Source of the DNA: Eledone cirrhosa
Lineage: Eukaryota
DNA length: 64,000 nucleotides
Direction of reading: 5' to 3'
Assembly: GCA_964016885.1 (NCBI GenBank)
Contig: CAXHJY010000065.1
Coordinates: 1 to 64,000, forward strand
Positions 1,075-44,477 of this stretch are shown in pieces. The translations under genes were made by a program, and so were the position numbers. The stretch's first letter is position 1; each line of letters begins with the position of its first letter. The notes under the pieces are model-generated. The model saw only the letters and a list, made by a program, of their open reading frames with translations, was not told the DNA's origin and did not search any database.

Positions 1075-1337
1075 ATAAGAAAATGAGTTTTTTTTTAATA
1101 AAAAAAATGAGATGTCCTACACGGGTGAAAGTACGAGGAAAAGAAATCGAAAATGCAACTGGAGTCTTTAAGAATATTTATTTATTTCCTTTACCGGTTT
1201 CACAGTTCTTATGCTTTTCAAAAGTTCTATTCATCCAAATCAATTCTACTTTTGAATAGCATAAGAACTGTGAAACCTGTAAAGGAAATAAATAAATAAA
1301 ATATTCTTAAAAAGACTTCAGTTGCATTTTCGATTTA
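1075..1337. mobile_element. Fold-back element, family B (Penelope pseudo-LTR-like), with hammerhead 3' half
   Basis: Inverted arms ~1144-1225 and ~1248-1336 with a left-only extension at 1075-1143. The arms read outward GAAAC-CG/CT-GTA-AAGGAAATAAA. Homologous to 21957-22265. Confidence 0.65.
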
Positions 1338-1404
1338 TTACCCATATATATAGAGAGAGAGAGGCGGGGTTGAACAGTAAAAAGAAAAGAATTGATGTCA
1401 GCCC

Positions 1405-1505
1405 TTGAATGGTACTTTATCGAACCCGAAGGGATGAAAGGCAAAGAGCTGGAACAATTACCACAAGGCATTTGTCTGATATTCTAACAATTCTACCAAC
1501 CCGCT
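1405..1505 (-). mobile_element. Degenerate tRNA-derived SINE fragment (Nin/Deu-like domain family)
   Basis: Reverse complement contains CTTTGCCTTTCATCCCTTCGGGTTCGATAAAGTACC, matching the complete SINE at 38521-38708. Confidence 0.55.
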
Positions 1506-2954
1506 ATCTTATCTGGTACTTTTCATTGTTAAAGATGGGATGGTGAGATTTGAGAGAAATTTGGTTGCTATTTTAGGTGATAGAGTGACTATGTAGAGGA
1601 CCCCTATTTAACTTGAAGAGAATAATTAGAGGAATTGAAATCGGATAAATCTGTAGTGCATTCAAAACTTGTTTCTAGGTCTTGGATATATAGTTTATCA
1701 AGCTGTTAGAATAAATCAGTTAATGCCACTAACTGATTATTTTACCTGCAAAACATTGCAGCTAAATCTCACTCACATATCATCATCGTTTAACTTCCAT
1801 CTTCCATGCTAGCATATAATTGTAGAAGAGCAGATGTACATTTGATAAAGTAGTCCTTGATACACACAGCACAAAAAATATAGGATGGTAATGTCTAGGA
1901 CAAATTTGATAAGAGATTTGCTCAATTAATGACCAGCCTGGGGCTAAAACAACCAAAAACACTAATTGTTATAGAATATGTTCTACATAATTAATAGCAT
2001 CAACAGAAATATGGACAACTTTGGTTGAAAGAAAAACAAACTGAAAAAATGTAGGATTTAAAAAGTTAAGTTGATATGAACTCACAATCCATAAGTAGGT
2101 AATCAAATGCCCTATTCCCTTAATCATTTCAGCACATCGAAATTAATGTTTATAACTTTGATTTAAGATATGTTATGGAAATTTACTCTTAAATCATTCT
2201 AAAATTCATTTTGTGAGTATATTTTTGGATTCCTCATAATTTCATATTTCATGTGCAGAATTCTCTATATTACAGAAATCCATAACAACAACAACAAAAA
2301 AAAGACATTAAAATAATAATTAAAAGAAAGAAAGAAAGAAGTAAGGAAAATGGAGAGAAACAAAAATAAACTGATAACAATAGCAAATAAAACTTATGAA
2401 CTACATTTTGAAGTGGAGAGTTGCTTTTCTCTTTATGAAAAATAAATAATAATTATTATATATTTTGTTATTCATTTCTTTTTCAATAATGAGAGATTAA
2501 GTTATATGTATATATATTTAAAAAAACATTTTCGATGAGTAATTTTCATATTATTCACAGTGAAATGGTTACTGAAACATCAATTGTTATTTAAAAATCA
2601 TTAATACATATATTATTGTAATATTTTATCTCATCATATTTACAGATATTAATTTGCTGAATGAAACTGGAAATTGGTGCTCAGCAACCAGCTACACACA
2701 TGGCACTAAATTTATGCTAATGGGAATATTTCATCGCTGCTTCTTTTATTTTTCATTGTATTTATTTATTCATTTGTTTATTTATTTATTTATTTTATGA
2801 GTGTTTTGGTTTGCTTTGTTATTGTTTCGGCAATATACCTTGCTAAATATCACTCAGATGTGAAACAGATAATCATTGTACAAGTTGTCATTTATAATAA
2901 TGTATCATATATTTATAGACTGCAGTCAACTGAAACCTTTAAATTAGCAATATA

Positions 2955-3007
<53 letters not shown>

Positions 3008-3781
3008 GGCAGCTGTAATTATAGCGAGTATGATGCTAAGATAAGATGGTGGTATTTTGGTGTTGTGGTGTTGATTCATTGCTGTGTATGTACTCACTTG
3101 AGGATTGCTCAGTAGTGTTGTCACTGTTGTATAGAGTGTAGGTGTAGGAGATTCATATGCTTGATACAGTGTGACCAGAGATTTCGGGTGTGCAAGTGAG
3201 TAAGTGTTCAATATGATGATGATCATCATGTGATGGTTATTTGGGTAAGTGATCTACCCTAATTACATAGGAAATGAAATATATAAACCACAATAATGCA
3301 AAGCCACTATGTTACTAATTTATTGAATATAACTTTCATTGAAGTTATACAACAATACCTGAAGAACAAACAACCTCAGTTGAATTATGTGATGTTATAT
3401 ATCAGGTATGATGAGTATGCATATTTGCTTGCAAAGGTATTATTAAAAATGTATTTAATAAACTTCTTTTGATGGGATGAATTTTCGCTGGCCTGTCTGA
3501 GAGAGAGAGAGAGAAACCAAGAGAAAGATAGAGAGGGTCTAAGAAAGGAAGGTGTCTGAGAGAGTTGACCACTACATCCTAGCTGGCTGGTATGGGTATG
3601 AACTCTGCAACTGCTATTGTTGACTATGGAATCAAGTTATTTATCAGTAATCCATTCTTTTGTCTCCATTTGACATATCAAACAAGATGACCATTTGATA
3701 TATCAAAACCTCAGACAAGTTGGCAACTGAAAGCCCATTCAGAATGGAACTTATCTATGAGGCCACCAAAGATCAGCTTAA

Positions 3782-3890
3782 TGGTGGCCACTAGTGTGAA
3801 GGTTGGATTCACAATCGTGAGATTGTGAGTTCTATTCCTGGACCAGCGATTCGTTATGTCCTTGAGCAAGACACTTTATTTCATGTTGTT
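3782..3890 (+). mobile_element. tRNA-head + CORE-like SINE, 5' fragment
   Basis: B-box-like GAGTTCTATTCC followed by GTCCTTGAGCAAGACACTTTATTT. Homologous to 47123-47270. Confidence 0.55.
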
Positions 3891-3991
3891 CCTTCTATCT
3901 GGAGTTGCGACCGATAGATAGTATTAGCAATTGGAAAGACCAAAGGAAACATTGTTCCCTTGGTTTAATTTGACAAAGGTCAATCAACTGT

Positions 3992-4030
<39 letters not shown>

Positions 4031-4044
4031 ATATAAATATGTAT

Positions 4045-4335
4045 ATGATACCTTAATTAGCAGTGGGGGAGAGTGCTGCAAGAGCATAATAGCTAGAATA
4101 AGGATAGGCTGAAAGAAATTTAAAGAGCTACTCTCATTATTGATCCCACCAAGGTTGACTTTGCCTTTCATCCTTACGGGGTCGATAAAATAAAGTACCA
4201 GTAATGCACTGGGTAATTTGCTGGCCTTGTGCCTAAAGTAGAAACAATTATTGAAAACAAAAGATTTCTCCCTACATACAAAAGGGTGGCTGTATGATGC
4301 CTGTGTGCAAAGTGTAATGCTGCATGGTAGTGACT
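4045..4335 (+). pseudogene. RTE LINE RT C-terminal fragment interrupted by a SINE 3' part (4143-4252)
   Basis: Encodes ...IARIRIG*KKFKELLSLL / KTKDFSLHTKGWLYDACVQSVMLHGS, homologous to the RTE at 19270-19430. The SINE tail matches 38521-38630. Confidence 0.75.
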
Positions 4336-7214: not shown

Positions 7215-7299
7215 TTAACTCAGTGAGAATCATCTCCTACATCTTGTAACATGTATAATATGTTACAGGATGTAGGAGGTGAATCTCACTTAAAGTTAA
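7215..7299. other. Isolated ~31-bp imperfect hairpin
   Basis: AGTGAGAATCATCTCCTACATCTTGTAACAT (7222-7252) pairs with ATGTTACAGGATGTAGGAGGTGAATCTCACT (7260-7290), with two G-U pairs and one mismatch on the + strand. Confidence 0.7.
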
Positions 7300-11460: not shown

Positions 11461-14265
11461 ATCATCATCATCATCATCGTTTAACGTCCATATTCCATGC
11501 TTGCATGGGTTTGGACGGGAGTTTTCCCACTTGAGGCAAGAGTGGTTGTCTTGCTCACACAGGACTGTCAGGCGGGTTTTCTACGGCTGGATGCCCTTCC
11601 TAACACCAACCACATTTACAGTGTGGACTGGGAGGTTTTTACCGTGTTACCTACACGGCCACATTACAGCTTGGACTGTGTGTTTTTTTGTCGTGACACC
11701 TACACGACCTCATTTGTTTCAGACTGGATGTTGTGTTACCAACATAACTTTACATTGAAAGAGGTGGTGTGGATGGGTTGGGGGTAGTGAAACGGGGGTG
11801 TATTTTGTTAGAGGTGCCTACTGACTGTAGTAGGTTTCACTTTGTACTTAGATAAGGCGGGTCTTCTCTATCACTGTGTAGCGCCAAAGACCTCGGTCCA
11901 GTGACATTGTCTTGGTGAGCTGTAAGTGTGTGAGGTCGGAATTTATCAAGTCGTCCCAGGTTTTTATGGGTCTGCCTACTCTGTGGCTACCATCTCTTTT
12001 TTATACAGCTGTCATCTTTCATGCGCATCACGTGATCATACCAACGTAGTCTTCTCTTGATTAAACAACATCTGATCCCTCTTATTTCTAATTTTTCCCT
12101 TAGTTCGTTTATGCTTTGCCATTCACGTATATTACTGTTACACATCCAGCGGAGCATGCAAGATTCGTTCCTCTCCAGTCTGCGTATATCCTCTGCACAC
12201 AATGCCCAGATCTCACTGCCATGTAACATTGCTGTTCGTATGCAGGCATCATACAGCCTGATTTCATTTTTTGAGAGAACCCTTTAGCGGCTAATAGTGG
12301 TATAAGCTCTCTGAACTTTTTCCATCCAGTTCTGACTCTAGCTACTGTACTTTCAGAGCACCCTCCCCCACTGCTGATTTTGTCACCCAGGTAACGGAAG
12401 GTGTCCACTATTTCTATAGAACCATCTGTGCAATGGAATGAGCTAGTATTCTGTGGGCACTTGCTGCTACTTATTGCACCAGAGCACCGGCCACATATAA
12501 AATCTATGTTCTTAGTTAGCTTACCTGTGATCCCACTACATCTTTTATGCACCCATACTTTGCATTTGGGACATAAAATGGAGTTTCTACCTACTCCTTT
12601 CCTACACACTGAGCATGGCCATTTCCAGGATGGGATCGGTGCCCTTTTTTCCTTCCTACAAACTAGAACTTTAGTCTTAGACAGGTTAATTTTGATTCTA
12701 GGCCATGCTTCCATGTTTGGAATTTCTTCTCTAGTTCAGCCATTGATTCAGCTATGAGCGTTAGATCATCTGTGTATAGGAGTTCCCATGGGCAGCCGGT
12801 CTTGAACTGTTATAGCCTGAAGGGCAATAATAAATGGTAGGGGGCTAAGAACGGAGCCCTGATGTACACCAGCTTTTACGCTAAACTCTTCACTATATTC
12901 GTTGTTAATTCTAACCTTGCTGACTGTTTCTTTATACATAGCTTGTATAGCTCTCACAAGCCATTCATCAACACCTAGTTTTCTAAGAGCCCACCAGATA
13001 ATGGAACGGGGGACTCTATCGAAGGCTTTCTCCAAGTCGACAAAAGCTAAGTATAGGGGTTTACTTTTAGCTAGATACTTCTCCTGTAGTTGTCTACAAT
13101 GAAAAGAGCGTCTGTAGTACTTTTACCTGACACAAACCCGAACTGCATTTCATCTAGATCAATTCTCTCTCTGATTAGTTGCGCTATTACTTTTTCTGTG
13201 ACCTTCATGACTTGGTCGATTAATTTAATGCCTCTATAGTTACTCCTATCTAGGGCATCTCCTTTACCCTTGTAGCAGTTAATGATGATGCTGCTACGCC
13301 AGTCCTTCGGAACAACCCCATTCTGTATGACTTGGTTTACTATCCGGGTGACCATGGTGTGTCCCACCGTTCCAGAGGCTTTCAGCATTTCATCAATTAT
13401 TTCCGAAGGCCCAGCCACCTTACCCATCTTCATATCTTTGATTGCCTTACTTATTATACTACCTTCGACTAACACTGCTGATCCCTCTATTTGGTCGATG
13501 TGGGGGAGACTGTCTTTCTCCCATTTATTCTCCTCATTTTGTAGCCTTTCATAGTGACACTTCCAAGCTACCTTCTTATCAGCGTCAGTGATGGCGAGTA
13601 CACCATCATCATTAAGGACACACTTCTTCCCGACAATATCACGGTTTTCCTTGACACATTGCCTAGCAATCCTGAACACCTCACGTTTTTGGTCCTCGCG
13701 TTGTAGAACATGCTTGAACTTTCTTTCCTCTGCTTCCCTTCTTGCGAAGTACACTTCTCTCCTAGCTTCCCTCCTGGCCACTTGATAGTCTTCTCTACTT
13801 CCCCCATCCCGCCATACTTTCCAAGCCTGCTTTTTGGCCTTAATTGACTCCTCCACCTTACTGTTCCACCACCATGTTACTCTCCTCCTGCCTACAGGCC
13901 TGCTCCAGCCACAGACTTCGTCTGCCGCCATCAGCAGGTTTGCTTTCAGGAATTCCCACTGTTCCTCTATATTGTACGATTCTAAACTCTTCCTTACTGT
14001 CGAAAGCATCAAGTAATATGCTTTTAAATTTATTTCTGGCTGTGGGGTCCTTTAGCTTCCATATTTTTCTCCCGAAGATAGTCCTCTTCTGTTGTCGAGT
14101 ACGTCTCGTCCTAACTATGAGGTCACTAATTATCAGTCTATGTTGGGATGTGCATTCTTCATGGGGGAGGGATTTAGTGTTTACAACAGACACTCTGTCA
14201 CGTCTTCTGGTAAGGTTATAATCTACCTGGCTGGTATGTTCCCCTGATCTGTAGGTGATCAAGTG
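11461..14265 (-). mobile_element. RTE-clade LINE copy A, 5'-truncated and frameshifted (end of APE, RT, PHD finger, long 3' UTR, (GAT)n tail)
   Basis: ORF pieces contain ITYRSG, VTWWWN, NYRGIKL, QFGF, KAFDRVPR, GVHQGSVLSP, the PHD cysteine pattern and RLRWY. The 3' end is GGACGTTAAAC(GAT)n, and both ends abut TA tracts. Confidence 0.95.
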
Positions 14266-14291: not shown

Positions 14292-14296
<5 letters not shown>

Positions 14297-14480
14297 AAGA
14301 GGGTGGGGTCAGATACCAGGTGGACCATAATGCACCAGAGTACTCGATACTTGGGGTAGTAGAGTGGGTAATATGAAAAGATTCAGGACCCTGATGGCTG
14401 AGCTCTTGCCATTTCGAGAGTTCGGATCTAGCTGTAAAATGGCCGGAGCTCAGCCATCAGGGTACTGAATCTCTTCATAT
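14292..14480. mobile_element. Fold-back element, family C, with hammerhead 3' half
   Basis: Arms ~14371-14416 and ~14436-14480. The minus strand reads GAAAT-GGC-AAGAGCTCA-GCC-ATC-AGGGTCC. Left-only tail at 14292-14370; flanked by (TA)n. Homologous to the 15328 and 34018 copies. Confidence 0.7.
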
Positions 14481-15327: not shown

Positions 15328-15513
15328 ACAAAGAGGGTGTGGTAAGATACTAGGTGGACTATAACGCACTAGAGTACTCAATACTTAGGGTAGTAAAGAG
15401 GGTAATAGGAAAAGAGTTACGACCCCGACGGCTGAGCTCCAGCCATTTCGACAGCTAGATCTAGCTGCCGAAATGGCTGGAGCTCAGCCGTTGGGGTCCT
15501 GCCTTTTTTTCTA
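15328..15513. mobile_element. Fold-back element, family C, second copy
   Basis: GACCCCGACGGCTGAGCTCCAGCCATTTCGACAGCTAG|AT|CTAGCTGCCGAAATGGCTGGAGCTCAGCCGTTGGGGTC is a near-perfect palindrome. Same tail as the 14292 copy; TA flanks. Confidence 0.7.
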
Positions 15514-15742
15514 CATACATATATATATTTATATATATATATATATAGTATTAGTTATACTATTTATGGTTTTGTAAATACCTTATGCAGTTATAAGTAT
15601 TTTACACACACCCTAAATAGTGGTAGGCAGTAATGTATTACTACCTTATTACCAGTAAGTTAAGTAGCTCAATGTAAAAACATCAGATGATTTACAGAGC
15701 AGTTATATGAAATATAAGAATCAAAGAACTGTTCAAAACATT

Positions 15743-15796
15743 ATTGTGCTTACAGCTGTTTCCTCCAAACCGAGGTTTGGATTCTTCGGAGCAATT
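15743..15796 (-). ncRNA. Minimal type I hammerhead ribozyme (family E, inverted copy)
   Basis: Exact reverse complement of 16237-16290. Confidence 0.7.
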
Positions 15797-16236
15797 TATT
15801 AATGCATGGACAGTTATATGACCTCCTTTTCAGCCGAGAGACATACCGATACATATTCAAACATTGATACATATTCAAATATTGTGGGTCAACATTCATT
15901 ATAGAATTTAGAGTGGCAGTACACACTTCGAGATTACATTTATATTAAGAGGTACAATCAAAAATCAAAAATACAGGTTAAAATACAACATGAAGATAAG
16001 CGGTTATATAGTGCAAATGTTATATGTGTGGCACGCATGTGCGTCTTGTTTATATAGTGTGGCAGAGAGATATGTGTGGTAGAGGCACTTAGGTAGGTAA
16101 ACAAGAGTGTTAGGTTGGTAGATCTGGTGGCAAATTCTTTATATGATTGATTTGCACTATATAACCGCTTATCTTCATGTTGTATTTTAACCTGTATTAT
16201 TGAAAAGGAGGTCATATAACTGTCCATGCATTAATA

Positions 16237-16290
16237 AATTGCTCCGAAGAATCCAAACCTCGGTTTGGAGGAAACAGCTGTAAGCACAAT
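16237..16290 (+). ncRNA. Minimal type I hammerhead ribozyme (family E)
   Basis: TGCT-CCGAAGA-A-TCCAAACC-TC-GGTTTGGA-G-GAAAC-AGCT-GTA/AGCA. Core has a U4>C variant, a GC-containing stem II hairpin, palindromic stem III ACAGCTGT, and a predicted GUA cleavage after 16282. Confidence 0.7.
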
Positions 16291-16381
16291 AATGTTTTGA
16301 ACAGTTCTTTGATTCTTATATTTCATATATTTCATATATATATATATATTTATTTATATATATATATATATATATTATATA

Positions 16382-19500: not shown

Positions 19501-19855
19501 CAGTGTAAATGTACGTGAACGACCCATAATAAATGTGTTGAGAGAGAAACTGTGTCTGAGAGGGATAGAATGTAATGTACGGGAGATGAGACTGAGGTGG
19601 TATGGACATGTGATGCGCATGGAGGATGACCGATGGGTTAAGAAGTGCCAGGAAATGCCAGTTGAAGGAAGACGTGGTAGAGGTAGACCACGAAGAACAT
19701 GGGCGGAGGTGGTGAGAACAGACCTCAGATCATTGAAGCTCATGGTGGAGATGACGAAGGACCGTGATGAGTGGAGAGATGCTGTGCTGAATAAGACCCG
19801 TCCCACCCTTGCAAGCAGGGAAAAGTGGACGTAAAATGATGATGATGATGATGAT
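16575..19855 (+). mobile_element. Near full-length RTE-clade LINE copy B (5' UTR, APE-RT-PHD ORF, short 3' end, (GAT)n)
   Basis: ATG at 16768. APE motifs (ATLNVGT, VQE, GDFNGHVG, QIDF, QHRLV); RT motifs (QFGF, FVDLEKAFD, QGSVLSP, YADD). One frameshift near 18110, TAG stops at ~18914 and ~18927, ORF ends at 19834 inside the 3' terminal stem. Inserted in (TA)n. Confidence 0.97.
16768..19834 (+). pseudogene. RTE polyprotein (~1020 aa): APE endonuclease, reverse transcriptase, inserted PHD finger; 1 frameshift and 2 stops
   Basis: ORF track segments 16768-18156, 18092-18916 and 18932-19834 join into one colinear RTE ORF. Confidence 0.93.
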
Positions 19856-20042: not shown

Positions 20043-20259
20043 CATATATATATAAGTATGTACACGTACATACATATATGTATACAGACGTACAGTATTA
20101 TGTATATATATATACATACATGCACACATATATATATATGTACGTATGGATTCACCGAACATTTATTATAATGCTCGGTGTGTTTGTAAACAAACATCCC
20201 GTATTAAGCCGTAGTGTCCAGCAACCATCGTTGCTCATTTGTTCAACACTGACAAAGGA

Positions 20260-20302
20260 ACACTGTACTAGTTTCAAGCTTATTAGCTATCGTCAGCAAC
20301 GT
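20260..20302 (-). ncRNA. Minimal type I hammerhead ribozyme (family A, copy a)
   Basis: Minus strand ACGTTG-CTGACGA-TAGCTAATAAGCTT-GAAAC-TA-GTA/CAGTGT. Intact core, palindromic stem III ACTAGT. Confidence 0.75.
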
Positions 20303-20587
20303 ATACCTTCTTGCCAGATTGTTGAACGTCTGAAAGTATATACTTTCCTTATGCATATTAACGGCTGAGCAGCCTAATTTGCATATCGAGTGGGTTAATC
20401 GGCCGGGTGTACCGAAAACGATAAACGGAAAAAATGAAACGTAATTTCATTTCCCACTCTTAGTACGGCTGTTACTTAAATATAAGTATGTACATGTACA
20501 CTCGATATGCAAATTGGGCACTCAGCCGTTAATAGGCATAAGGTAAGTATATACTTTCAGACGTTCAACAATCTGGCAGGAAGGTAT

Positions 20588-20630
20588 ACGTTGCTGATGA
20601 TAGCTAATAAGTTTGAAACTTGTACAGCGT
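20588..20630 (+). ncRNA. Minimal type I hammerhead ribozyme (family A, copy b)
   Basis: ACGTTG-CTGATGA-TAGCTAATAAGTTT-GAAAC-TT-GTA/CAGCGT. Six-bp stem I; predicted cleavage after 20624. Confidence 0.75.
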
Positions 20631-20922
20631 TCCTTTTTCAGTGTTGAACAAACGAGCAATGATGGTTGCTAGACACTACGGCTTAATACGGGATGTTTGT
20701 TTACAAACACACCGAGCATTATAATAAGTGTTCGGTGAATCCATACGTACATATATATATGTGTGCATGTATGTATATATATATACATACTAGTGTACGT
20801 CTGTATACATATATGTATGTACGTGTACATACTTATATTTAAGTAACAGCCGTACGAAGAGTGGGAAATGAAATTTCGTTTCATTTTTTCCGTTTATATA
20901 TATATATATGTATATATTTATT

Positions 20923-21108
20923 TATCCAGGAGATTCCAACCAGAATGGTTGCATTTTTTCAGGGTATGTCAATATTTATTTATAAAACTAACCTATATTA
21001 TATTTTATTTGATGAAAGCGCACCATAGTTTGCCTTGGTGGCCCTTGATATATGTATAATGAAATAAATATGGTTTTATAAATATAGTTTCCATTTGTTA
21101 ATATATTG
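20923..21108 (+). mobile_element. Degenerate single arm of family D with a decayed hammerhead
   Basis: ATTTTAT-TTGATGA-AAGCGCACCATAGTTTGCCTTGGTGGCCCTT-GATAT... is homologous to 44348-44450. The upstream part matches the reverse complement of ~44265-44330. Confidence 0.65.
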
Positions 21109-21140
<32 letters not shown>

Positions 21141-21417
21141 GAATAGAATGAAACGAAATTTCATTTCTCACTCTTAGTACGGCAGTTACTTAAATGTAAG
21201 TATGCATGTATGTATACGTACATACATATATGTATACAGACATACAGTAGTATGTATATATCTACATACATGCACACATTTATATATGCACGTATCGGTT
21301 TACCGAACATTTATTATAATGCTCGGTTTGTTTGTTTGTAAACAAACAAACAGCCCGAATTACACCGTACAGTGCTTACGCAACCACGTTGCCTTTTTGT
21401 TCAACACTGACACAGGA

Positions 21418-21460
21418 ACGATGTACTAGTTTTAAGCTTATTAGCTATCGTCAGCATCGT
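21418..21460 (-). ncRNA. Hammerhead motif (family A, copy c), GAAA>AAAA core mutation
   Basis: Minus strand ACGATG-CTGACGA-TAGCTAATAAGCTT-AAAAC-TA-GTA/CATCGT. Perfect stem I; likely inactive. Confidence 0.6.
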
Positions 21461-21792
21461 ATACCTTCCTGCCAGATGGTTGCACGTCTGAAAGTAGTAC
21501 ATCGTTCCTGTGTCAGTGTTGAACAAAAAGGTGACGTGGTTGCGTAAACACTGTACGGCGTAATTCGGGCTGTTTGTTTACAAACAAACAAACCGAGCAT
21601 TATAATAAATGTTCGGTAAACCGATACGTGCAGATATATATATATGTGTGCATGTATGTATATACATACATACTACTGTACGTCTGTATACATATATGTA
21701 TGTACGTATATATACATACATACTTACATTTAAGTAACTGCCGCACTAAGAGTGAGAAATTAAATTTCGTTTCATTCTATTCCATTTATATA

Positions 21793-21887: not shown

Positions 21888-21956
21888 AGATAGATAGATA
21901 GATAGATATTTATATATACATATATATAGAGAGACAGAGAGAGAGAGAGAGAAAAA

Positions 21957-22265
21957 AAGATGAAATCGAAAATGCAACTGGAGTCTTATTTTTAAAAAAT
22001 ATATATATTTATTTGGTTCCTTTACCGGTTTCGCAGTTCTTCTGCTTTTCAAAAGTAGTTGAGATGGAGGGTCTGTGGTTTTTCTCACATCTACTTTTGA
22101 AAAGCTGAAGAACTACGAAACCGGTAAATGAACCAAATATATATATATATTTTTAAAAAAATAAGACTCTAGTTACATTTTTGATTTCATCTTTTTTTTC
22201 TTTATACTTTCACTCGTGTAGGACACCGGTTATTTTTCATTTTGTAAAAAAAAAATCACTTTCTA
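21957..22265. mobile_element. Fold-back element, family B, second copy
   Basis: Arms ~21957-22064 and ~22084-22195, each with GAAAC-CG-GTA (palindrome ACCGGT). The right-only tail at 22196-22265 matches the reverse complement of 1075-1143. The spacer differs from the first copy. Confidence 0.7.
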
Positions 22266-22306
22266 ATATATATATATATTTATATATATTTATATATATA
22301 TATATT

Positions 22307-22338: not shown

Positions 22339-22641
22339 TATATATATATATTTATATTTATATATATATATTTATACATGGAAAAGAATTAAATGAAATT
22401 TCATTTTTTACTCTTAGTACGGCTGATAATTAAATATAAGTATGTATACGTACATACATATATGTATACAGACGTACAGTAGTATGTATATATATACATA
22501 CATGCACGCATATATATATGTACGTATGGGTTTACCGAACATTTATCATAATGTTCGGTTTGTTTGTAAACAAACAGCCCGAATTAAGCCGTACAGTGTT
22601 CGGCAACCATAGTTGCCCTTTTGTTCAACACTGACAAAGGA

Positions 22642-22684
22642 ATGATGAACTAGTTTCAAGCTTATTAGTTATCGTCAGCCCCGT
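22642..22684 (-). ncRNA. Hammerhead motif (family A, copy d)
   Basis: Minus strand CTGACGA-TAACTAATAAGCTT-GAAAC-TA-GTT. Core intact, stem I decayed. Confidence 0.55.
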
Positions 22685-23070
22685 ATACGTTCCTGTCAGA
22701 TGATTGAACATTTGAAAGTATATACTTTCCTGATGCATATTAATGGCTGAGCAGCCTAATTTGCATATCGAGTTAGTTAGTCGGCCGGGCGTACCGAAAA
22801 CGATAAATGGAAAAGAATGAAATGAAATTTCATTTCGCACTCTTAGTACAGCTGATACTTAAATATAAGTATGTACACGTACATACATATATGTATACAG
22901 ACATACATTAGTATGTATATATATACATACATGCACACATATATATATGTACGTATGGGTTTATTGAACATTTATTATAATGTTCGGTTTGTTTGTAAAC
23001 AAACAGCCCGAATTAAGCCGTAAAGTGTTCAGCAACCATCGTTGCCTTTTTGTTCAACACTGACAAAGGA

Positions 23071-23113
23071 ACAATGAACTACTTTCAAGCTTATTAGCTA
23101 TCATCAGCACTGT
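23071..23113 (-). ncRNA. Hammerhead motif (family A, copy e), 429 bp from copy d
   Basis: Minus strand ACAGTG-CTGATGA-TAGCTAATAAGCTT-GAAAG-TA-GTT/CATTGT. Stem I is retained with a different sequence. Confidence 0.55.
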
Positions 23114-23535
23114 ATAACTTCCTGTTAGATGACAAACAAACCGAACATTATAATAAATGTTCGGTAAACCCATACATATATATATGTGTGCATGCATGTA
23201 TATATATACATACTACTGTACATCTGTATACATATACAGGCGAGAACCCCATTGGCAAATTCATGTACTAAATGGAGTTGCGTCCCCCTGGGGACTATAT
23301 ATTCGAGGCCTGCCTAGGCATAAGCCTCTCTCACATCCTGAACTTCGAAGGAACAAGAACACCTGAGACCTTGTCAAGAGATGACTCCTGCCTCACTTCC
23401 TTCCCCCGCAAGAAGAAGAATACCGACAGCCTAAAGAAATACTCGAACACCACCAAGAGAAGATTTCTGTTCTTCTCTTCACACTCCAGTCTGGGAGATG
23501 TGACCAACTGAACATCTACATGTGGTAACAAATTC

Positions 23536-25047: not shown

Positions 25048-25191
25048 TAGGGTTAAAATACTGGAGCGTGTTGGAGTTAAACACCCTCTTCGTATTATAG
25101 AAATGACAGTAAAAGGTATAGCTCAATGTAATTAAACAGAGCCGAAGAATTATGAAAGTAAAACAAAGAAGCCTTCAATACATCAAAAGTC

Positions 25192-25243
25192 TTTATTAGC
25201 CAACAATGTTTCGTCCTATTAAGGACTCATCAGGGCAATTAAA
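25192..25243 (-). ncRNA. Type I hammerhead ribozyme (family F, inverted copy)
   Basis: Reverse complement of 26338-26389. Confidence 0.75.
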
Positions 25244-26337
25244 ACAACAAGAAGTATTATCGGCCAATACAAGCCGGAAACTTTACCGGGGTTATTTCCG
25301 AAGTTTTTACTTAACTGCATGTGAGACCTAAATGTATACTTTTGTTTTTGTTTTTTAATTTCCGGTTGATTCTATTTATTTATTTTATTTTATTTGTAAT
25401 ACTACTGTGCATTCTATTTACTGTCTGGCCCTTACTCACTCATCCACATATATGTCTGTTTACCAACCTTGTAATTATAAGTAATTATATATTATATTAT
25501 GTTAATTATTTTATATTGTATTTGTTATTGTACTATCGATCCTTATTACTTACCGTTGATTATATGTAACATTGTGATATGTTAATCTTTATATATCATG
25601 TAAGATGTTTATATTTTTGCACCATCATAATTTTGGGTATTGTACAATTTATTTTTCCTCACCCACTCTGTAACTCTATATGAATTGATTTGTTAACTTG
25701 AATGCCATTATATATTGTATATTATATATGTTATTATATTATTATTATAGTATTATTGTGATATCTATATTGTTTGTGTAAATTAACCGGAGATTATCTA
25801 TTCTATTCTATTATATTATATAGTATATAATTGTATAGTTTATTATATATTATATGTGCTACTTATAATAATATCATATTATTACCTCATGTATATTGGG
25901 TATATGTATTATTATTATTATTATTATTTTTATTCCTATCATGCTTATTTATATTTAAACTCTTAATAAGGTTTAATTTGTGCTGTTGAAGATGGATATG
26001 TGTATTGATGTATGTGTATATGTGCGTACGTGTGCGTACATATATACATATGTATATTGTACCTTTTGATTTTTATTGTAATTTTAATATTGATAAAAGT
26101 ATATTATATTATATTATATTGTATTATATATAATTTCTGCTCTATATAACCACCTTTGTTTAGCTCTAGGCTTTTTTTGCTTTGGACTATATTTGTAATA
26201 TGGTTCTAAATGTTATACACCTCCTTAGTGATTTTTATTATATATTTTTACCCATAATCTTGCAATACTTTAGTGTATGTACACTCCATATTCTTCGGAG
26301 TTTCCGGCTTGTATTGGCCGATAATACTTCTTGTTGT

Positions 26338-26389
26338 TTTAATTGCCCTGATGAGTCCTTAATAGGACGAAACATTGTTGGCTAATAAA
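26338..26389 (+). ncRNA. Type I hammerhead ribozyme (family F)
   Basis: AATTGCC-CTGATGA-GTCCT-TAAT-AGGAC-GAAAC-ATT-GTT/GGCTAAT. Canonical core with a G10.1-C11.1 stem II; predicted cleavage after 26379. Confidence 0.8.
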
Positions 26390-26457
26390 GACTTTTGATG
26401 TATTGAAGGCTTCTTTGTTTTACTTTCATAATAAATATATATATATTTATATATAAA

Positions 26458-29400: not shown

Positions 29401-29808
29401 GATCTTTGGCGCTACGCAGTAATACAGAAGACCCGCCTTGCCTATGTAAAAAGCGAAACCTGCAGTCAGTAGGCACCTCTTAACCAAATATACACCCCAA
29501 TCTACTACCCCCTACCCCACCAACAGCACGAGAAAATGAGATCGAGTTCGTGTAGGTGTCACAACAAAAAACACACAGTCCATGCTGTAATGTGGTCGTG
29601 TAGGTAACACGGTAAAAAGTTCCCAGTTCCACACTGTAAATGTGGTTGGTGTTAGAAAGGGCATCCAGCCGTAGAAAACCTGCCAGATAGTCCTATATAA
29701 GCGCGACATGGTCACCCGACCAGCCTTGCCTCAAGTGGGACAACTCCCGTCTAACCCATGCTAGCGTGGAAAATGGACGTTAAACGAAGATGATGATGAG
29801 ATGATGAT
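26458..29808 (+). mobile_element. RTE LINE copy D, near full-length ORF, disrupted, PHD finger deleted, long 3' UTR
   Basis: APE ORF 26483-27307; RT pieces through YEDD at ~28620; GKWPCSGAISSK junction; 3' UTR module and GGACGTTAAAC(GAT)n-like tail. Confidence 0.95.
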
Positions 29809-29810
29809 AT

Positions 29811-29852
<42 letters not shown>

Positions 29853-31879
29853 TCTTCATTTAATGTCCATCTTCCACGCTAGCATGGGTTAGACTGATAT
29901 ATATATATATATACATATATATACATGTATAAACACACACACATGCACACATATACAGATCTCCAATGCCACCACCATCACTGCAGCTTCTACCACCACT
30001 AGATAATCAAATATATGACAGCAAAGACACTTAGCTATGTAGGTTCACACACATAAAGTAACTTAACACACATTACTTAGTAACATACACACAGAGAAAA
30101 AATAGAGTAACATTGACAACTTCCAGATTGACTTTAAGATTGAAAAGGCTGCAAAAAGGATAGGGATCAAATATTCTCTATAATAGAATGAAAAAAAAAA
30201 GATAGGGAAAAAAATTAGCAAGTAACAATATCCAGTTTATGGGATTTTTTTTATTGGCAAATGACCCTTCTACAAACTATATACTTATGTATATATACAT
30301 GTATATATATATATATGTATATATATATACATACACACACACATATATATATGTGTGTTTGTGTGTGTGTGTATGTATATACATACATACATATATATAT
30401 ATAACACCCTCATATATATATATAAATATATACATACACACACATATATATGTGTGTGTGTTTGTGTGAGTGTATATACAGGGCGACAAAATTTCTATTA
30501 ATAATTCATTATCTTCACCGAGATAAAAATGCAGCATCCTTCACATTTATCCATGGGGAAAATAAGCAACAATTAAAAGGAAATTCACAATTTTTTTTTC
30601 CTATTCCATATGTATCAATATTAAATTTTTACACTCTACAATTGTTTCAATGTCCGGGCTTTACTCAACAATCTTATGTAAAATATCTTACATAACTTTT
30701 CTGATTTAAAGACTACTCATCTCCTCTGGAATTCCTAATACAATTAATGAAGCTTTAAGGGAACATCATTTTATAAAATCAACTGAATAAAATAGAAAGA
30801 AAGAAAAACAAGAAAAAAGAATAGAAGACATTAAAATGCACAGGAAGTTATTTATCAAAAGATATAAAATGATCGAAAGAAAAAAAATTTAAACGAAAAA
30901 TGGTGTTTATAAAAGTTATGTATAAAAATCAGTGCAAAAAGAGAAGAGAAAGGAAATGTAATAATTGTTAAAGATTCGATCAGGTTAGCCAGTTAAAGGG
31001 TGCAGAATTTAAAAGCTATGGCATAGTTATGCTCAAAGAATGACTCAGTCTTACCATTACCTTTCTAGTGATCAAAGATTAGCAGACTACGCCTTCCTTG
31101 TTGGAAGAGAACAAAGTGATCATAAACTAAGGCATCAAGATATCAAGTGATAGAGTCAATAAATCTTCTCATATGTGTAAAGAAAAGGGACAAATGAAAA
31201 TTATATATCATAAAAATGTTTGCAGATTAACTCTTTAGCATTTAAACCGCTGTATTCGACCAGAATTCTCTCACCACTATCTGTTCAAACTGGTCGTAAC
31301 TGGCCACTCATACTGATGTTAAGATATTGTACTCAAAAGAAATAATATCAAAATCTTATAGAATCGATATTATGGGAGATAAAGCCTTTACCAGGTAAAT
31401 ACAGTAGTAAATATAGTGTAATGTAAATGCTAAAGGGTTAAAGAAATCTGGCAGATTACATTATTATCTCTGAATACATATTACTATAAAATAATTATAT
31501 AGAATTACTATAAAAATATTTGCAGATTAAAGAACCCAGTCAGAATATATTATTATCTCTTATGATATAAATAAGGATAAAAACATAATCAATAAAATTA
31601 ATGTATTGACAATCATTTGAGCTATAATAATAATGTTTTCAATATGAATAATATTAGTATGATTAATACTAATTAAAATACATAATTATATATATATAGA
31701 TAATAAAAGGAAAAATATAATGACTAAACCAACACTTACAATACAAGTAATTAAGTGTAATATATATATACTCGGTAGCAAAATACTTAAAAAATTGAAA
31801 CGAACAGCACCAAAGAACAATACATTCAAATAAAAATATATTAGTGTAATGCATAAAAAGTGTAATAAAATAGTCTTAA

Positions 31880-33979: not shown

Positions 33980-34017
<38 letters not shown>

Positions 34018-34018
<1 letters not shown>

Positions 34019-34218
34019 GGAAAATGTTCAAGACCCCGACGGCAGAGCTCAAGCCGTTTCGACGGCTATTTCTTGACCAGGTCCAGAAATAGCCGTCAAA
34101 ACGACCTGAGCTCTGCCGTCGGGGTCTTGAACATTTTCCTATTACCCACTCTTCTATCCTAAGTATTGAGTACTCTGGTGCATTATGGTCCACCTGGTTC
34201 CTTACCACACTTCCTTCG
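34018..34218. mobile_element. Fold-back element, family C, third copy (opposite orientation)
   Basis: Arms 34018-34075 and 34081-34141. The minus arm reads GAAAC-GGC-TTGAGCTCT-GCC-GTC-GGGGTC. Right-only tail; (TA)n on both sides. Confidence 0.7.
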
Positions 34219-36700: not shown

Positions 36701-36937
36701 AATTTCTAGATTCCATAAGGCTTCAAGCAAACTGCAATACTCTCTCATAAATAACATTGATTATTACAACACATGTATGTATACAACACCTCTCTATCTT
36801 GTCATATGTATCACATTCAGCTTTTCTGAACCTAACAGAGAGTTTCTGTAGATTCTATACTCTCCTTTTACAAATTTTCTGCATTTCTCGTTCCATCTTC
36901 TGCTTATTCTGATGTCACAAATGACTAACTTATGTCC

Positions 36938-39915
36938 ATCATCATCACCGTTTTATGTCCGTTCTTCCACGCTAGCATGGGTTAGACGGGTTGTCCTGTT
37001 GTGGGCAGTGTCTGGTCGGCTGACCATGCCTTGCTCATACAGGAACTGATTTGGCTTGATTTCTACAGCTGGATGCCCTTCGTAACACCAACCTCATTTA
37101 CAGTGAGTGCTGGGTGCTTTTTCGTGGCGCCTACATGTCCACTTTACAGTGTGGGCTGGGTGCTTTTTTGCCGTGGCACCTCCACGACCACCTTGCAGTG
37201 GGGGGTGTGGGGGCATATTGTCTATATGCTTCAGCTTGTACCCAGAGGTGTAGTTGGGTAAGGTCGGCTTTTATCACCTCATCCCAGCTCATCTTGGGTC
37301 TCCCCACTCCGCGGTTTCCATCGACTTCTAGTGCTCTGCACCTTTTTATGCAGCTGTCATCCTTCATACGCATCACATGTCCATACCAGCGCAACCACCT
37401 CTCCTGCACACAACATTTGATTCCTCTTATGCTCAGTCTCTCTCACAATTCATTTATGGTTTGTCGTTCGCGTATATTACTGTTACACATCCATCGGAGT
37501 ATGCAGGCTTCGTTTCTCTCTAATCTACGTAAGTCTTCTACAGACAGCGCCCAGGTCTCACTACCATGCAACATCGCTGTTCGGATACACGCATCATACA
37601 GTCTGCCTTTTATTTTGAGGGAGAAGCCTTTTGCAGCTAGCAGTGGTAGTAGTTCCCTAAACTTCTTCCATCCCGTTCTTACCCTAGTTATTTTACTTTC
37701 TGGACACCCACCTCCGCTGCTAATTCGGTCACCTAGGTAGCAGAAGCTGTCTACTGTTTCTACAGAGCCCTCCCAGAGATTGGTGGTACTTGTTTCCTGT
37801 GGCTGTTTGCTGCTTGCTGTCCCAGCACAGCTGCTGCATGTGAAGCCTACATTCTTAATTAAGCTTCCTGAGATCCCGCTACATCTCTTGTGTACCCATT
37901 GTTTGCATTTGGGCAGAGAATGGAGTCCCTACCTACACATTTCCTTCATACTGAACAAGGCCATTTCCCTGAGTGGATCTGGGTTCTGTCTTCTCATCTA
38001 CTTACAAGGACAAATGCCAGGTAGAGTGGCTTACTTTTAGCTAGGTACTTTTCCTGTAACTGCCTGACAAGGAAGAGGGCATCAGGGGTGCCTCTTCCTG
38101 GTACAAACCCAAATTGCATCTCGTCTAGTTTCACCCGGTCCCTAATCAACTGTGCTATAACTCTTTCTGTTACTTTCATGACCTGGCCCATCAGCTTTAT
38201 ACCTCTATAGTTTCCTCTATCTAGTGCATCACCTTTACCTTTGTAGCAGTTGACAATGATGCTACTGCACCAATCTTTTGGTATGACACCTTCTAGTATT
38301 ACCTGGTTAACAATACGTGTGGTTATAGTGTGACCTACAGACCCAGATGCCTTCAGCATCTCGGCAGCTATACCCGATGGACCGGTTGCCTTCCCCATCT
38401 TCATATCTTTGATTGCCTTACTTACTACGCTGCTGCTGACTTGTACTGCTGGCCCCTCTATAGGGTCTACTTGGGGTAGGGTCTCTTCTTCCCATGCATT
38501 CTCCTCATTTAGTAATCTATCATAATTGTTTCTACTTTTGGCACAAGGCCAGCAATTATCCCAGTGCATTACTGGTACTTTATTTTATCGACCCCGTAAA
38601 GATGAAAGGCAAAGTGAACCTCGGCGGGATTTGAACTCAGATCGTAAAGGGACGTAACTATGCTTGAAAGCATGGCGTCCGACCCTCTACCGATACTGCC
38701 AGTCCACCGACTCTTCCATGCATCTTTCTTCTCAGCACTTGTGAGGGCAAACTCACCTTTATCATTCCGGATACACTTCTCTCCAATGACATCACAATTC
38801 TCTCTGACACACTGCCTCGCAATCTTGAATACCTCCTGTTTCTGGTCATCACGTTGCAAAACATGCTTGAATTTTCTATCATCTGCTTCCCTCCTAGCTA
38901 AGTATACTTGTCGCCTAGCTTCCCTCTTGGTCTCTATGTAATGTACCCTGCTCCCCCAGTTCTTCCATTCTTTCCATGCCTGTCTCTTGGCCTTAACTGC
39001 CTCATCTACTTTATTGTTCCACCACCAAGTCACTCTCCTCCTGCTTGAGGTCTTACTCCAGCCATAGACCTCATCCGTCGCCTCTAGTAAGTTATTTTTT
39101 AGGAACTCCCAGTTCTCTTCTACATCGAATGTCTCTATCTGTTCTTCTTTACTGTCGTAGGCGTTGAGTTAAATATCTTTAAATCTGTTACTAGTTGAGG
39201 GGTCTTTCAGCTTCCAGATCTTTCTTTTCCAGGTTCGCCTCTGTTTCCAGGTTTGTCTAGTTCTGACTGTGAGGTCGCTGACAACTAAGCTATGTTGGGA
39301 TGTACATTCCTCACTAGAGAAGGCTTTTGTGTTTACGACCGTCCATCTGTCACGTCCTCTGATGAGGATAAAATCTATCTGACTAGCGTGCTCCCCTGAT
39401 CTATAGGTGATCAGGTGGTTGTCGGGTTTTTTAAAGTTTGTGTTACATATCGACATGTCATTGGCGTCGCAGAATTCTTGAAGTCTGAATCCTTCCTCAT
39501 TTCTTGTGCCAACCCCATGGCCTCCATGTACTCTATTGAAGCCGTCGCAGTGTTTACCTACGTGTCCGTTAAAATCTCCTGCGATGATTAGGAAGTCATT
39601 GTCGTCTGTTAGAGCAGTAGTGTGCATTAAGGACTCGTAAAACCTATCCTTAAGTTCGTCTGGCAGCCCCGATTGGAGTGCGTAAGCTGATATTATTGTG
39701 GTAATTGTTTTATTCAGGACTAGTCTGAGTTTAATGATTCTTGCATTTACCCTGTACACTGAGATTACTTTATCTACCCACTTGTCAGCTAGTAGTATAC
39801 CTACACCAACCATCCCATCGTCATTTCCCACCCAGAAAAATTTGTAGCACCGACCTTTTCCTACAAGGACTCTAGCAGACTCTCCTCTCCATCTAGTCTT
39901 TCGCACACAGCATAC
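36938..39915 (-). mobile_element. RTE LINE copy E, disrupted by a SINE insertion, an RT-core deletion near 38010 and a 3' deletion near 37240
   Basis: APE ORF 39169-39906; RT ORFs 38569-39033 and 37994-38569. The LAFV|LVSR junction lacks the KAFD...YADD region. The 3' part is closely similar to copy C. Confidence 0.95.
38521..38708 (-). mobile_element. Complete tRNA-derived SINE (Nin/Deu-like central domain) nested in RTE copy E
   Basis: A-box TGGCAGTATCGG, B-box GAGTTCAAATCC, then CTTTGCCTTTCATCTTTACGGGGTCGATAAAATAAAGTACCAG and an ATT tail. It interrupts the WKS|HYDRLLNE codons of the RTE. Confidence 0.9.
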
Positions 39916-40007
39916 ATTATGTTGTGTGGTGCATTTACCTCTGGGTAAGAAGTGTTGGGTAATAATGGTAGTAATAATAATGACAATATCATTAAGAATA
40001 GATTAAC

Positions 40008-43049: not shown

Positions 43050-43610
43050 TGCTGTACACTGCTCAAATAAAACATAATCTCCAACAACACATGAAGACTA
43101 TCATAAATAACTAAAGAACAGCTGAAGAAGAATGAGCTATTGAGTAAATCAAAATCAATCCCAAAGTGTTATTTTCCTTTGCCAAAAAACACAAGATCTT
43201 TACTGTTGGCCCTCTGATTGATGAAAATGGTACTCTTCAAGACAATTCGAAAATGGCAGAAACAATACTGCTGTTTTCAGCAATGCTGATATGGCTGAAC
43301 AGGGCTGTTTCGGTGATGTTAATCCCCAACACACTATATTGAACATAATGTTTGGTGCCCCTGATGTTTTAGCAGCAATAAACAACATTAAAGACAACTC
43401 AGTAGAAGGTCCTGATAGGTTCCCTAGTGTTGTGAAAGTGTGTCAACACCAACTTGCATCTCCTCTAGCTAATCTGTAGTGGAACTTACTAGACACTAGC
43501 TATATACCTGAAAACTCTCTGTCTCAGTCTGTTGTCCCAGGTTTCAAAAAGGGGAAGAAGTCCTTTGCAGTGAATTACTGTCTGATCAAACTCGCATCTC
43601 GTAACAAGTT
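43050..43610 (+). pseudogene. CR1/L2-group LINE RT N-terminal fragment
   Basis: DVLAAINNIKDNSVEGPDRFP...LASPLANL*...VVPGFKKGKKSFAVNYCLIKLAS (RT regions 0-1). Confidence 0.65.
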
Positions 43611-43841
43611 AGACATAGCCTGGCCCAATACTGGCTGAAGCCTATCAAAGTTAAGTATTTATCAAGAAAGCCAACTGCATATAAATACAACCGTATTACA
43701 ATGACAGTTAGCTTTGTTGATGATTTCTTTTAAATGAAACAGTTCTGGTCCTGTATTGAGTACTTTACTTACTGTGGTCACCCCCGATTGAACCTGGGAC
43801 TCTCACACACGCACATATATACACACACACACATATATATA

Positions 43842-43873
<32 letters not shown>

Positions 43874-43879
43874 CAAAGT

Positions 43880-44052
43880 AAACACTGTAAATGAGGTTGG
43901 TGTTAGGAAGGGCATCCAGCTGTAGAAATCAAGCCAAATCAGTTCCTATATGAGCAAGGCATGGTCAGCCGACCAGATACTGCCCACAACAGGACAACCC
44001 GTCTAACCCATGCTAGCGTGGAAGAACGGACGTAAAACGGTGATGATGATGA
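43880..44052 (+). mobile_element. RTE/SINE 3' terminal fragment
   Basis: Near-identical to the reverse complement of 23536-23712 and to 47395-47570. Confidence 0.8.
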
Positions 44053-44195
44053 TATATATATACAAAGGTTATATTTAATTTGTTGGAATTCAACAAACTT
44101 AAAAGTTTTTTAACTGATATAAAGCACTCAACAAATTAGTGGAGTAAATATTCAATATATTAATAAATGGAAACTATATTTATAAAACCATAATT

Positions 44196-44259
44196 ATTTT
44201 ATTATATATATTTCAAGGGCAACCAAGGCAAATTTTGGTGTGCTTTCATCAGATAAAAT
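44196..44259 (-). ncRNA. Type I hammerhead ribozyme (family D, inverted copy)
   Basis: Exact reverse complement of 44348-44411. Confidence 0.7.
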
Positions 44260-44347
44260 ACAAAATTTGTTTTATAAATGTTGACATACCCGCAAAAGAA
44301 CAACCTTGATGGTTGGAGGTTCGCTGGATAGTAATAACAAATTTTGT

Positions 44348-44411
44348 ATTTTATCTGATGAAAGCACACCAAAATTTGCCTTGGTTGCCCTTGAAATATA
44401 TATAATAAAAT
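44348..44411 (+). ncRNA. Type I hammerhead ribozyme (family D)
   Basis: ATTTTAT-CTGATGA-AAGCACACCAA-AATTTGCC-TTGGTTGCCCTT-GAAAT-ATAT-ATA/ATAAAAT. Perfect 7-bp stem I, palindromic stem III, predicted AUA cleavage after 44404. Confidence 0.75.
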
Positions 44412-44477
44412 AATTATGGTTTTATAAATATAATTTCCATTTATTAATATAATGAATATATATATATATGTATATAT

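Follow-up and report, generated by a model that had tools for sequence, protein, structure and literature searches.

Truncated head-to-head ends of Penelope-like elements and a likely retrozyme beside TA repeats in Eledone cirrhosa

Hammerhead-like repeats in the window

The first 64,000 nt of contig CAXHJY010000065.1 of the Eledone cirrhosa assembly GCA_964016885.1 (forward strand; hereafter the window, meaning this whole stretch) contain six families of repeats, A to F, which lie beside (TA)n tracts, are mostly folded back on themselves and carry predicted hammerhead ribozymes or parts of them. Judged from sequence, these appear to be a real feature made of known classes of element, namely five truncated families of Penelope-like elements (PLEs) and one likely retrozyme.

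A descriptor for type I hammerheads found 10 complete hammerhead-like cores in the window vs. 0.36 ± 0.61 (maximum 2) in 100 dinucleotide shuffles, a contrast somewhat flattered because the descriptor was broadened once the families were known (allowing U3-A8 cores, U4C cores and a long stem II). By eye we recognized six further damaged cores (three in A, two in B, one in D) and seven half cores (six in C, one in A), where a preliminary description of this sequence had counted about 11 full or nearly full cores and about 10 half cores. Families A, D and F have canonical cores, B and full-length C have U3-A8 cores, and E has a U4C core; in C stem III forms a 5-bp hairpin, and in the other five families it is a palindrome or close to one. 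The hammerheads of B to F are sequence motifs with predicted pairing, situated in a terminal repeat. The suggested check with Rfam Hammerhead_1 (RF00163) lists only family F, at 29.1 bits and so below the gathering score of 34; besides this, the Rfam scan of the window at E up to 1 gave simple-repeat microRNA noise only. That the ends mostly abut (TA)n was borne out, as (TA)4 or longer lies within 30 nt of 20 of the 23 outer ends listed, vs. 4.8% of window positions; the ends of B to F sit in (TA)n, which masks any target-site duplication.

All the copies named in the preliminary description are present about where it placed them. Arm positions below are relative to the predicted hammerhead cleavage site (minus being upstream). 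B copy 1 (1074..1336), the inverted 3' end of a Neptune-type PLE, consists of a tailed arm at 1225-1074 (-), covering -33 to +143, and a short arm at 1234-1336 (+); its U3-A8 core at 1221 (-) passes the descriptor and its plus-strand core is damaged. B copy 2 (21950..22269) has its short arm on the minus strand (22092-21950, -71 to +74), with an intact U3-A8 core at 22052 (-), and its tailed arm on the plus strand (22083-22269, -43 to +144). The C copies at 14292..14475 (tailed arm -, short arm +; about 83% to the reference copy) and 15328..15513 (tailed arm -) are each two 3' half-hammerheads folded back, and the third, at 34016..34218, pairs a short minus arm (-39 to +22) with a tailed plus arm (-39 to +98), both beginning at the family's 5' hotspot within hammerhead loop II. 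All three retain the GAAA, stem III and cleavage site only, the complete ribozyme being absent; the claim that every family carries hammerheads thus stands family by family, as a prediction, but fails for these and for most genomic C copies.

The D fold-back (44064..44462) joins a tailed arm at 44344-44064 (-), -142 to +139, to a short arm at 44336-44462 (+), -68 to +58, with canonical cores at 44252 (-) and 44355 (+) and an AU stem I of 8 bp. The other D copy (20923..21116, +; -127 to +58; core damaged) is a lone arm with no fold-back, the only named copy for which a head-to-head arrangement had been claimed in error. In family E (15548..16329) the tailed arm at 16151-15548 (-) extends from -400 to about +210 and includes 3' untranslated region (UTR), and the short arm at 16201-16329 (+) covers -81 to +47; the cores at 15789 (-) and 16244 (+) read CCGAAGA (U4C), with the stem III palindrome ACAGCUGU. 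Family F (25049..26432) has a tailed arm at 25282-25049 (-), -80 to +153, and a plus arm at 25282-26432 made up of 1.1 kb of parental 3' UTR and the short end (+53), with canonical cores at 25233 (-) and 26348 (+).

Family A departs from the single architecture proposed for all six families in being a head-to-tail tandem unit. In insertion 1 (20047..20897) the minus arm (20500-20047) spans a unit junction and stops at the short end, and the plus arm (20500-20897) stops at the long end, with complete cores at 20296 (-) and 20594 (+). Insertion 2 (21134..21789) has inverted arms with the long end on both, a damaged core at 21454 (-) and a half core on the plus strand. Insertion 3 (22374..23236) is a partial tandem of a 429-nt unit (23132-22374, -; cores at 23107 and 22678 damaged) plus a short inverted arm at 23122-23236.

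Coding parents of families B to F

Although the window copies have no coding capacity, as had been stated, the genome does hold coding parents for B to F. Parents were sought in the 25 best-match loci per family and then in 10-kb stretches, and long copies joining the arm to an open reading frame (ORF) for reverse transcriptase (RT) and GIY-YIG endonuclease were found for all five. In loci L045 (F), L066 (E), L123 (D) and L159 (C), tails lead to an ATG and its PLE ORF with no (TA)n in between. Whole units with the layout repeat-ORF-3' UTR-repeat measure 4,692 nt in F, about 4,120 nt in E and about 3,676 nt in D, with frameshifts in each parent copy examined; the window copies of E and F are 98-100% and 96-98% identical to the parent copies in L172 and L166, respectively. 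For C, read-through into the 5' UTR occurs at 393 exact sites, among them tandem arrays with a unit of about 3.53-3.54 kb and open frames of 784 codons. For B, 18 of 19 other long copies run upstream, by eye, into the same GIY-YIG-coding sequence, which is known from partial frames, there being no full-length B copy among the loci retrieved. Families B to F are 5'-truncated, inverted ends of five coding PLE families and not stand-alone elements, so that the preliminary reading as Penelope-like is supported by every family but A, and "truncated or non-autonomous" resolves into truncated copies of coding elements (B to F) and non-coding A. Partial-tandem pseudo-long terminal repeats (pseudo-LTRs), an inverted 5'-truncated copy and a tail, together a PLE hallmark, occur in B to F, except that for B the inverted copy and tail are present and the upstream pseudo-LTR was not seen in the loci retrieved. 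The single ORF with a telomerase-like RT and C-terminal GIY-YIG domain is also as in PLEs, and is intact in C.

Comparison literature, here and below, comprised the available portions of PMC8557442, PMC11167929, PMC4209133, PMC7229834, PMC2377424, PMC3846280 and bioRxiv 10.64898/2026.07.22.740005. The Hydra clade of PLEs is there defined by an RWK-type motif, DKT, a CxCX5C linker, lack of CCHH, and CxxC plus CxH in the endonuclease (PMC8557442). The C, D, E and F proteins have RWR (in place of RWK), DKT, the CxCX5C linker, no CCHH, and GIY-YIG as the C-terminal domain, and CxxC plus CxH were found in C to F, the distal motifs of D being lost to a frameshift in L164; the four thus carry Hydra-clade motifs, and by these and by-eye comparison we would place them in that clade. 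Despite the near absence of resemblance claimed between families, identity between the C and F proteins reaches 39-45% over the stretches that align. A model of the C protein from a 64-sequence alignment reached a predicted local distance difference test score (pLDDT) of 91.7 (32 for a single-sequence model), and its top Foldseek match was the telomerase TERT structure 3du5 (E 1.4e-8); a sequence search of the PDB with the C protein and the C alignment gave 0 matches. The B protein comprises RT, a CX4CxxC linker and a CCHH-type C-terminal endonuclease with CxxC between GIY and YIG and histidines after; it thereby shows the Neptune/Nematis-type motifs (CX2-5CxxC linker plus CCHH), which alone do not separate these two clades. 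The only species-named match of the F protein was from Argonauta hians. Its frames (L166:6139-7488 (-) and L170:3317-5278 (-)) contain a long asparagine/serine-rich insert between RT and endonuclease, and a similar insert is described for rotifer Penelope ORFs (PMC3846280).

Genome-wide counts of exact cores, which are lower bounds (reversed-pattern controls gave 0), came to 11,803 for B, with U3-A8 in 100 of the first 100 matches listed, and 1,205 for F. The retrieved loci contain at least eight additional hammerhead types, and other PLE families with RT plus GIY-YIG frames (L161:3549-5942 (-), L167:6142-7899, L169:2804-4339, L170:6410-6985, L174:138-1965 and L158:7934-9394 (-)), some with their own hammerhead-like motif downstream, one of these with a U4C core.

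Two fixed 3' ends and their pairing

Each family has two 3' ends, a short and a long one, at +79/+144 in B, +22/+100 in C, +58/+139 in D, +47/about +210 in E, +53/+153 in F and +217/+274 in A; the resulting tails of 57 to about 165 nt span a wider range than the about 70-120 nt given earlier. Each end is also found in solo copies. When inverted partners were sought within 1.5 kb, long was paired with short in 11 of 11 cases for B, 15 of 17 for C, 12 of 12 for D, 10 of 10 for E and 5 of 5 for F. The queries for C to F included the tail, so short-short pairs were invisible in that sample; at loci that had been retrieved by other means than a tail query, 48 C pairs comprised 46 long+short, one long+long and one short+short. 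The two arms of a C pair derive from the same subfamily, as they differ by 0.67 mismatches in 11 diagnostic bases vs. 4.1 for shuffled pairs.

In the C to F parents a hairpin of the form RCTC...GAGY starts a few bases 3' of each of the two ends, matching the strict pattern at six of the eight sites vs. a background of 0.06 per kb in the window. Thus the 13-nt motif shared by E and F is not, as had been thought, all that the families have in common. In the PMC8557442 supplement, the entry just before Hydra-1_Obim also has such a motif after its hammerhead.

The 5' end of family C

Exact matches to the 3' part of the C ribozyme number 12,987 genome-wide vs. 949 for its 5' half, a roughly 14-fold deficit (the ratio is rough, the patterns having 18 and 21 letters). 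Among the first 30 matches, five retain the 5' half by eye (four were flagged by script). Of C arms met by chance in loci of other families, 35 of 45 begin at -34 to -47, and six of 12 ORF-bearing C copies start, by eye, at -46 to -22. Because ORF-bearing copies share this start zone, the hotspot looks like the element's own RNA start, placed by sequence within ribozyme loop II. The 5' ends of B also cluster, 19 of 25 falling at -66 to -72 in the best-match loci.

Where both arms of a C pair start at -41 with a single base between them, that base is G or C at 522 of 601 loci, while the parent has T. The extra G was assigned to the long arm at 13 of 30 loci and to the short arm at 14 of 30, with several subfamily tags; occurring on either arm and across tags, it does not mark one amplified clone. 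Among the first 50 two-base junctions listed, CG occurred five times and GC never (p about 0.03). LINE-1 elements show an extra G copied from the cap. The two-base test in B and D had four and three matches only, and the templated base there is already C or G.

Three other signals were tried and rejected. An extra G at GGTCC was present in 6 of the first 100 matches listed, the apparent signal having come from query design. A splice acceptor behind the C hotspot was dropped, as solo copies show by eye no common upstream exon. Finally, 5' ends do not pile up at the cleavage site (0 of 19 A arms, 1 of 45 C arms). Separately, loci L265 and L266 (G000:C1:27009647-27009921) hold a tandem deletion form in which two C starts lie 257 nt apart and the ORF start is rejoined to the 5' hotspot; it may be a non-autonomous unit in the making.

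Family A, a non-coding tandem unit

The A unit measures 429 nt in the window, and elsewhere its length is about 420-500 nt. It is repeated head to tail, with 23,085 exact cores and 10,514 exact head-to-tail junctions genome-wide and a longest ATG ORF of 56 aa. A insertions are mostly of one to two units, dispersed, often inverted and with scattered 5' ends, although arrays of six to eight units also occur. Among 19 arms met by chance, six span the unit junction and 14 stop no more than 8 nt away from one of the two fixed sites. The predicted hammerhead has a stem I of six pairs and a second helix; the stem I pair 122:158 is variable (AU 30, UG 23, GU 10) and is paired in 64 of 70 copies vs. 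52% expected, which, the copies being related rather than independent, counts as support and not as a probability. Contigs from three sequencing runs, compared with one A arm, gave family variation in X1 and low-depth pieces only in X4 and X5. No ORF colinear with A was found in 55 A-fetched loci, the 19 chance arms and one array. As in non-LTR retrozymes, the tandem unit is short and non-coding and has a predicted type I hammerhead of its own, and A is likely such a retrozyme, copied in trans by a PLE-type enzyme. Elsewhere (L017-L019, G000:C2:237.26-237.28 Mb) three near-identical clusters of A and D lie about 7.5 kb apart, as a larger tandem duplication.

Proposed mechanism and alternatives

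We give a probability of roughly 85% to the reading that B to F are truncated head-to-head ends of coding PLEs and that A is a likely retrozyme copied in trans. The details of how such ends form are less secure, although we favor twin priming on one sense RNA with cDNAs running off its capped start. The GIY-YIG domain would nick both strands of a (TA)n tract, and each 3'-OH would prime reverse transcription at one of two internal sites on the same sense RNA, in C to F just 5' of an RCTC...GAGY hairpin; joining of the two cDNAs at their far ends would give a fold-back with a one-sided tail. The start sites would also be near the RNA 5' end, so that synthesis of many cDNAs would end by run-off at the capped start, 60-200 nt on; an RNA start in hammerhead loop II would explain the half-ribozymes of C. 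For family A, tandem copies would yield a transcript that its own hammerhead cuts and circularizes; reverse transcription of that circle, or of a multimer, would then produce the scattered 5' ends and the copies longer than one unit.

Only tentatively do we combine all this into a picture in which a capped sense RNA is primed twice at hairpin-marked sites, the C ribozyme acts as a brake, and A is a circular-RNA retrozyme mobilized in trans; as a whole it may well prove wrong. Were it true, this genome would preserve a footprint of the Penelope cycle that had been missing; the C promoter would start transcription inside the hammerhead, leaving only the downstream copy able to self-cleave; cleavage would strip that copy of the start sites, so that the ribozyme would hold back retrotransposition at full length; and A would be a circular-RNA retrozyme with more than 23,000 hammerheads, moved by PLE machinery.

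Several observations weigh against parts of this account. Two of the eight hairpin sites match only a relaxed form of RCTC...GAGY, A has no such hairpin after its ends, and the long end of F is almost without TA microhomology. One-base C junctions cannot separate an added G from an added C, which only the 5:0 count does, and direct (TA)n junctions show no excess of G (T 84, G 7, C 8 and A 1 in the first 100 listed). The 5' pile-up is weak for D in an unbiased sample and absent for E. Pfam gave only sub-threshold GIY-YIG and RVT_1 matches, with neither matched by the intact C protein. For A, a helper search found no similarity to nine other PLE 3' regions, and the window pair at 21134-21789 is long+long, an exception to the pairing rule. 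Lastly, A core bases are no more conserved than their flanks, a comparison that the preliminary description had put forward as a check on the hammerheads; in one A arm, none of the 12 invariant core positions is among about 33 variable places in 241 nt, which is not significant. Such a result is expected of decaying copies from homogeneous sources, so this check is uninformative.

One alternative is the mechanism proposed for rotifer Penelope (PMC3846280), in which self-priming on an antisense template, or fold-back synthesis on it, produces the arms that lie head to head. It would suit the near-perfect palindromes at many junctions and fits the same-subfamily arms as well, but we consider it unlikely, since it leaves unexplained the second arm's fixed second end joined to (TA)n, the solo copies of each end, and the presence on either arm of an untemplated base at one fixed place near the 5' end.

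It is likewise improbable, in our estimate, that A is a satellite which originated in a single PLE end and multiplied mainly through local tandem amplification or through unequal crossover (satellite-type spread of this sort is discussed in bioRxiv 10.64898/2026.07.22.740005), or the truncated end of a coding PLE that was not found. Arrays of six to eight units and the failure to find a helper element speak for such origins. However, most insertions are of one to two units, dispersed, 5'-truncated at scattered places and often inverted, and they end at two fixed positions in (TA)n; the long end runs into the unit's own start 10,514 times, and no A-colinear ORF was seen in the loci examined.

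That the short B, C and D fold-backs are fixed-length non-autonomous elements, resembling short interspersed nuclear elements (SINEs) or miniature inverted-repeat transposable elements (MITEs), with the 5' clusters as their boundaries, is largely refuted and has very little chance of being right. The tight 5' clusters of B and C, the one exact junction common to 522 C loci and the existence of the 257-nt tandem deletion form would agree with fixed units. Yet junctions vary among 46 C pairs, the G is on either arm in several subfamilies, ORF-bearing C copies share the start place, the arm lengths of E and F vary freely, and longer copies are colinear with coding parents. The last rival, in which the arms are terminal inverted repeats of a DNA transposon and the hammerhead motifs are chance, is refuted, for although Tc1/mariner MITEs typically have inverted arms and TA flanks, the arms here are unequal and colinear with RT plus GIY-YIG ORFs, 10 descriptor cores face 0.36 in shuffles, and A shows stem covariation.

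Other repeats and neighbors

The window also contains several copies of a long interspersed nuclear element (LINE) of the APE-RT kind, probably RTE-like (12112-14051, 16753-19831, 23841-24782, 26435-29314 and 37446-40002), in both orientations, that at 16753-19831 being nearly full length. An abundant SINE-like repeat with a GATGAT-type tail (11568, 23544-23843, 36937-37236, 43883-44053, 44593 and 61833) has its 3' end in common with this LINE, and at 29749-29894 that common 3' end is folded back around a (TA)n tract. An imperfect palindrome of 69 nt (7222-7290) falls outside families A to F, and a partial tRNA-like Rfam match (47135-47192, 33.2 bits) is probably a SINE head. Among the genomic loci, L126 has, downstream of its D copy, an open frame that we presume to resemble a TMC-family membrane protein exon, and L157:7954-9900 (-) holds fragments presumably resembling a Gypsy-like RT plus integrase frame.

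Significance

As element classes these are known, and taken by themselves B to F would add new members to kinds already described; what gives the locus its value is its mechanistic footprints and an intact ORF, not element type. It opens a test of how PLE head-to-head inversions and tails form; an in vitro PLE system has been named as a next task (PMC8557442). The thousands of copies that lie next to TA repeats are likely a record of one RNA being copied from two start sites. They show a nearly strict pairing of long with short, a sharply placed 5' end that bears an untemplated base, and a shared hairpin following each start, and an ORF of the Hydra type is available intact. A second question is whether animal retrozymes move by PLE enzymes: the link has been argued from co-occurrence and phylogeny (PMC7229834; bioRxiv 10.64898/2026.07.22.740005), and family A bears a PLE insertion footprint itself. 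Finally, this 3.0-Gb genome holds tens of thousands of predicted ribozymes, mostly under the Rfam threshold.

Comparison with known systems

Inverted 5'-truncated copies, one-sided tails, (TA)n targeting and promoters in the pseudo-LTR are already published for PLEs, as are opposite-strand hammerhead pairs and U3-A8 cores (PMC4209133) and an octopus Hydra family (PMC8557442). The latter, from Octopus bimaculoides, combines (TA)n insertion with a hammerhead in the PMC8557442 supplement, making it doubtful that the present population is unannotated, as had been supposed. In the available literature, with few subscription journals covered, we found no account of a numeric long+short rule, of untemplated bases in the junctions of PLEs, of an RNA that starts within the ribozyme, or of the repeated hairpin. 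PLE hammerhead variants are reportedly treated by Lünse et al. 2017.

Families C to F resemble published Hydra-clade PLEs in the hammerhead in the terminal repeat, (TA)n insertion and C-terminal GIY-YIG domain, and their motif order is by eye that of Hydra-1_Obim (PMC8557442 and its supplement). They differ in unit length (3.5-4.7 kb vs. generally <3 kb, which is typical and not defining), in tails of 78 to about 165 nt vs. 30-40 nt for published PLEs, in the U3-A8 core of C and U4C core of E, and in the putative RNA start of C inside the ribozyme; Hydra-1_Obim is moreover listed as "no pLTR", whereas the families here have clear tandem and inverted repeats (PMC8557442). Family B is like Neptune-type PLEs in its RT, CX4CxxC linker, CxxC between GIY and YIG and C-terminal endonuclease, and unlike them in its U3-A8 core and 65-nt tail. 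The minimal hammerheads of the Cercyon PLE of Schistosoma mansoni likewise have a U3-A8 covariant core, opposite-strand pairs 100-700 bp apart and mostly truncated copies, in an account whose available text leaves arm ends, 5' hotspots and untemplated bases unanalyzed (PMC4209133).

Family A is similar to metazoan non-LTR retrozymes in that its tandem unit is AT-rich, lacks coding capacity and holds a type I hammerhead of canonical size (PMC7229834; bioRxiv 10.64898/2026.07.22.740005), whose 6-bp stem I with internal loop and palindromic stem III are also alike; for the U-U pair at the base of its stem II, axolotl HHR_Amex2 offers a cleaving precedent. At 420-500 nt, the A unit falls at the top of the published range of 150-450 or beyond it. 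Family A is also unlike published retrozymes in its mostly dispersed insertions of one to two units, which include inversions, have two fixed 3' ends and are flanked by (TA)n; in the available texts, "inverted" does not occur in PMC7229834, nor "tail" in bioRxiv 10.64898/2026.07.22.740005. No cephalopod retrozyme was found described in the literature searched, which excluded repeat databases, and the supplements of the bioRxiv paper may list such families.

The closest mechanistic parallel is Poseidon of Anolis carolinensis (PAc), for which both AT-rich target strands are cut and extended in vitro and two internal RT starts define the tail (PMC11167929). The PAc tail is short, lies inside the ORF and starts at a site not homologous to the target, whereas here the ends are upstream of the ATG, most with TA microhomology. 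PAc and the families described here would nonetheless have in common two internal start sites and the use of both target strands, which for the latter is inferred from DNA.

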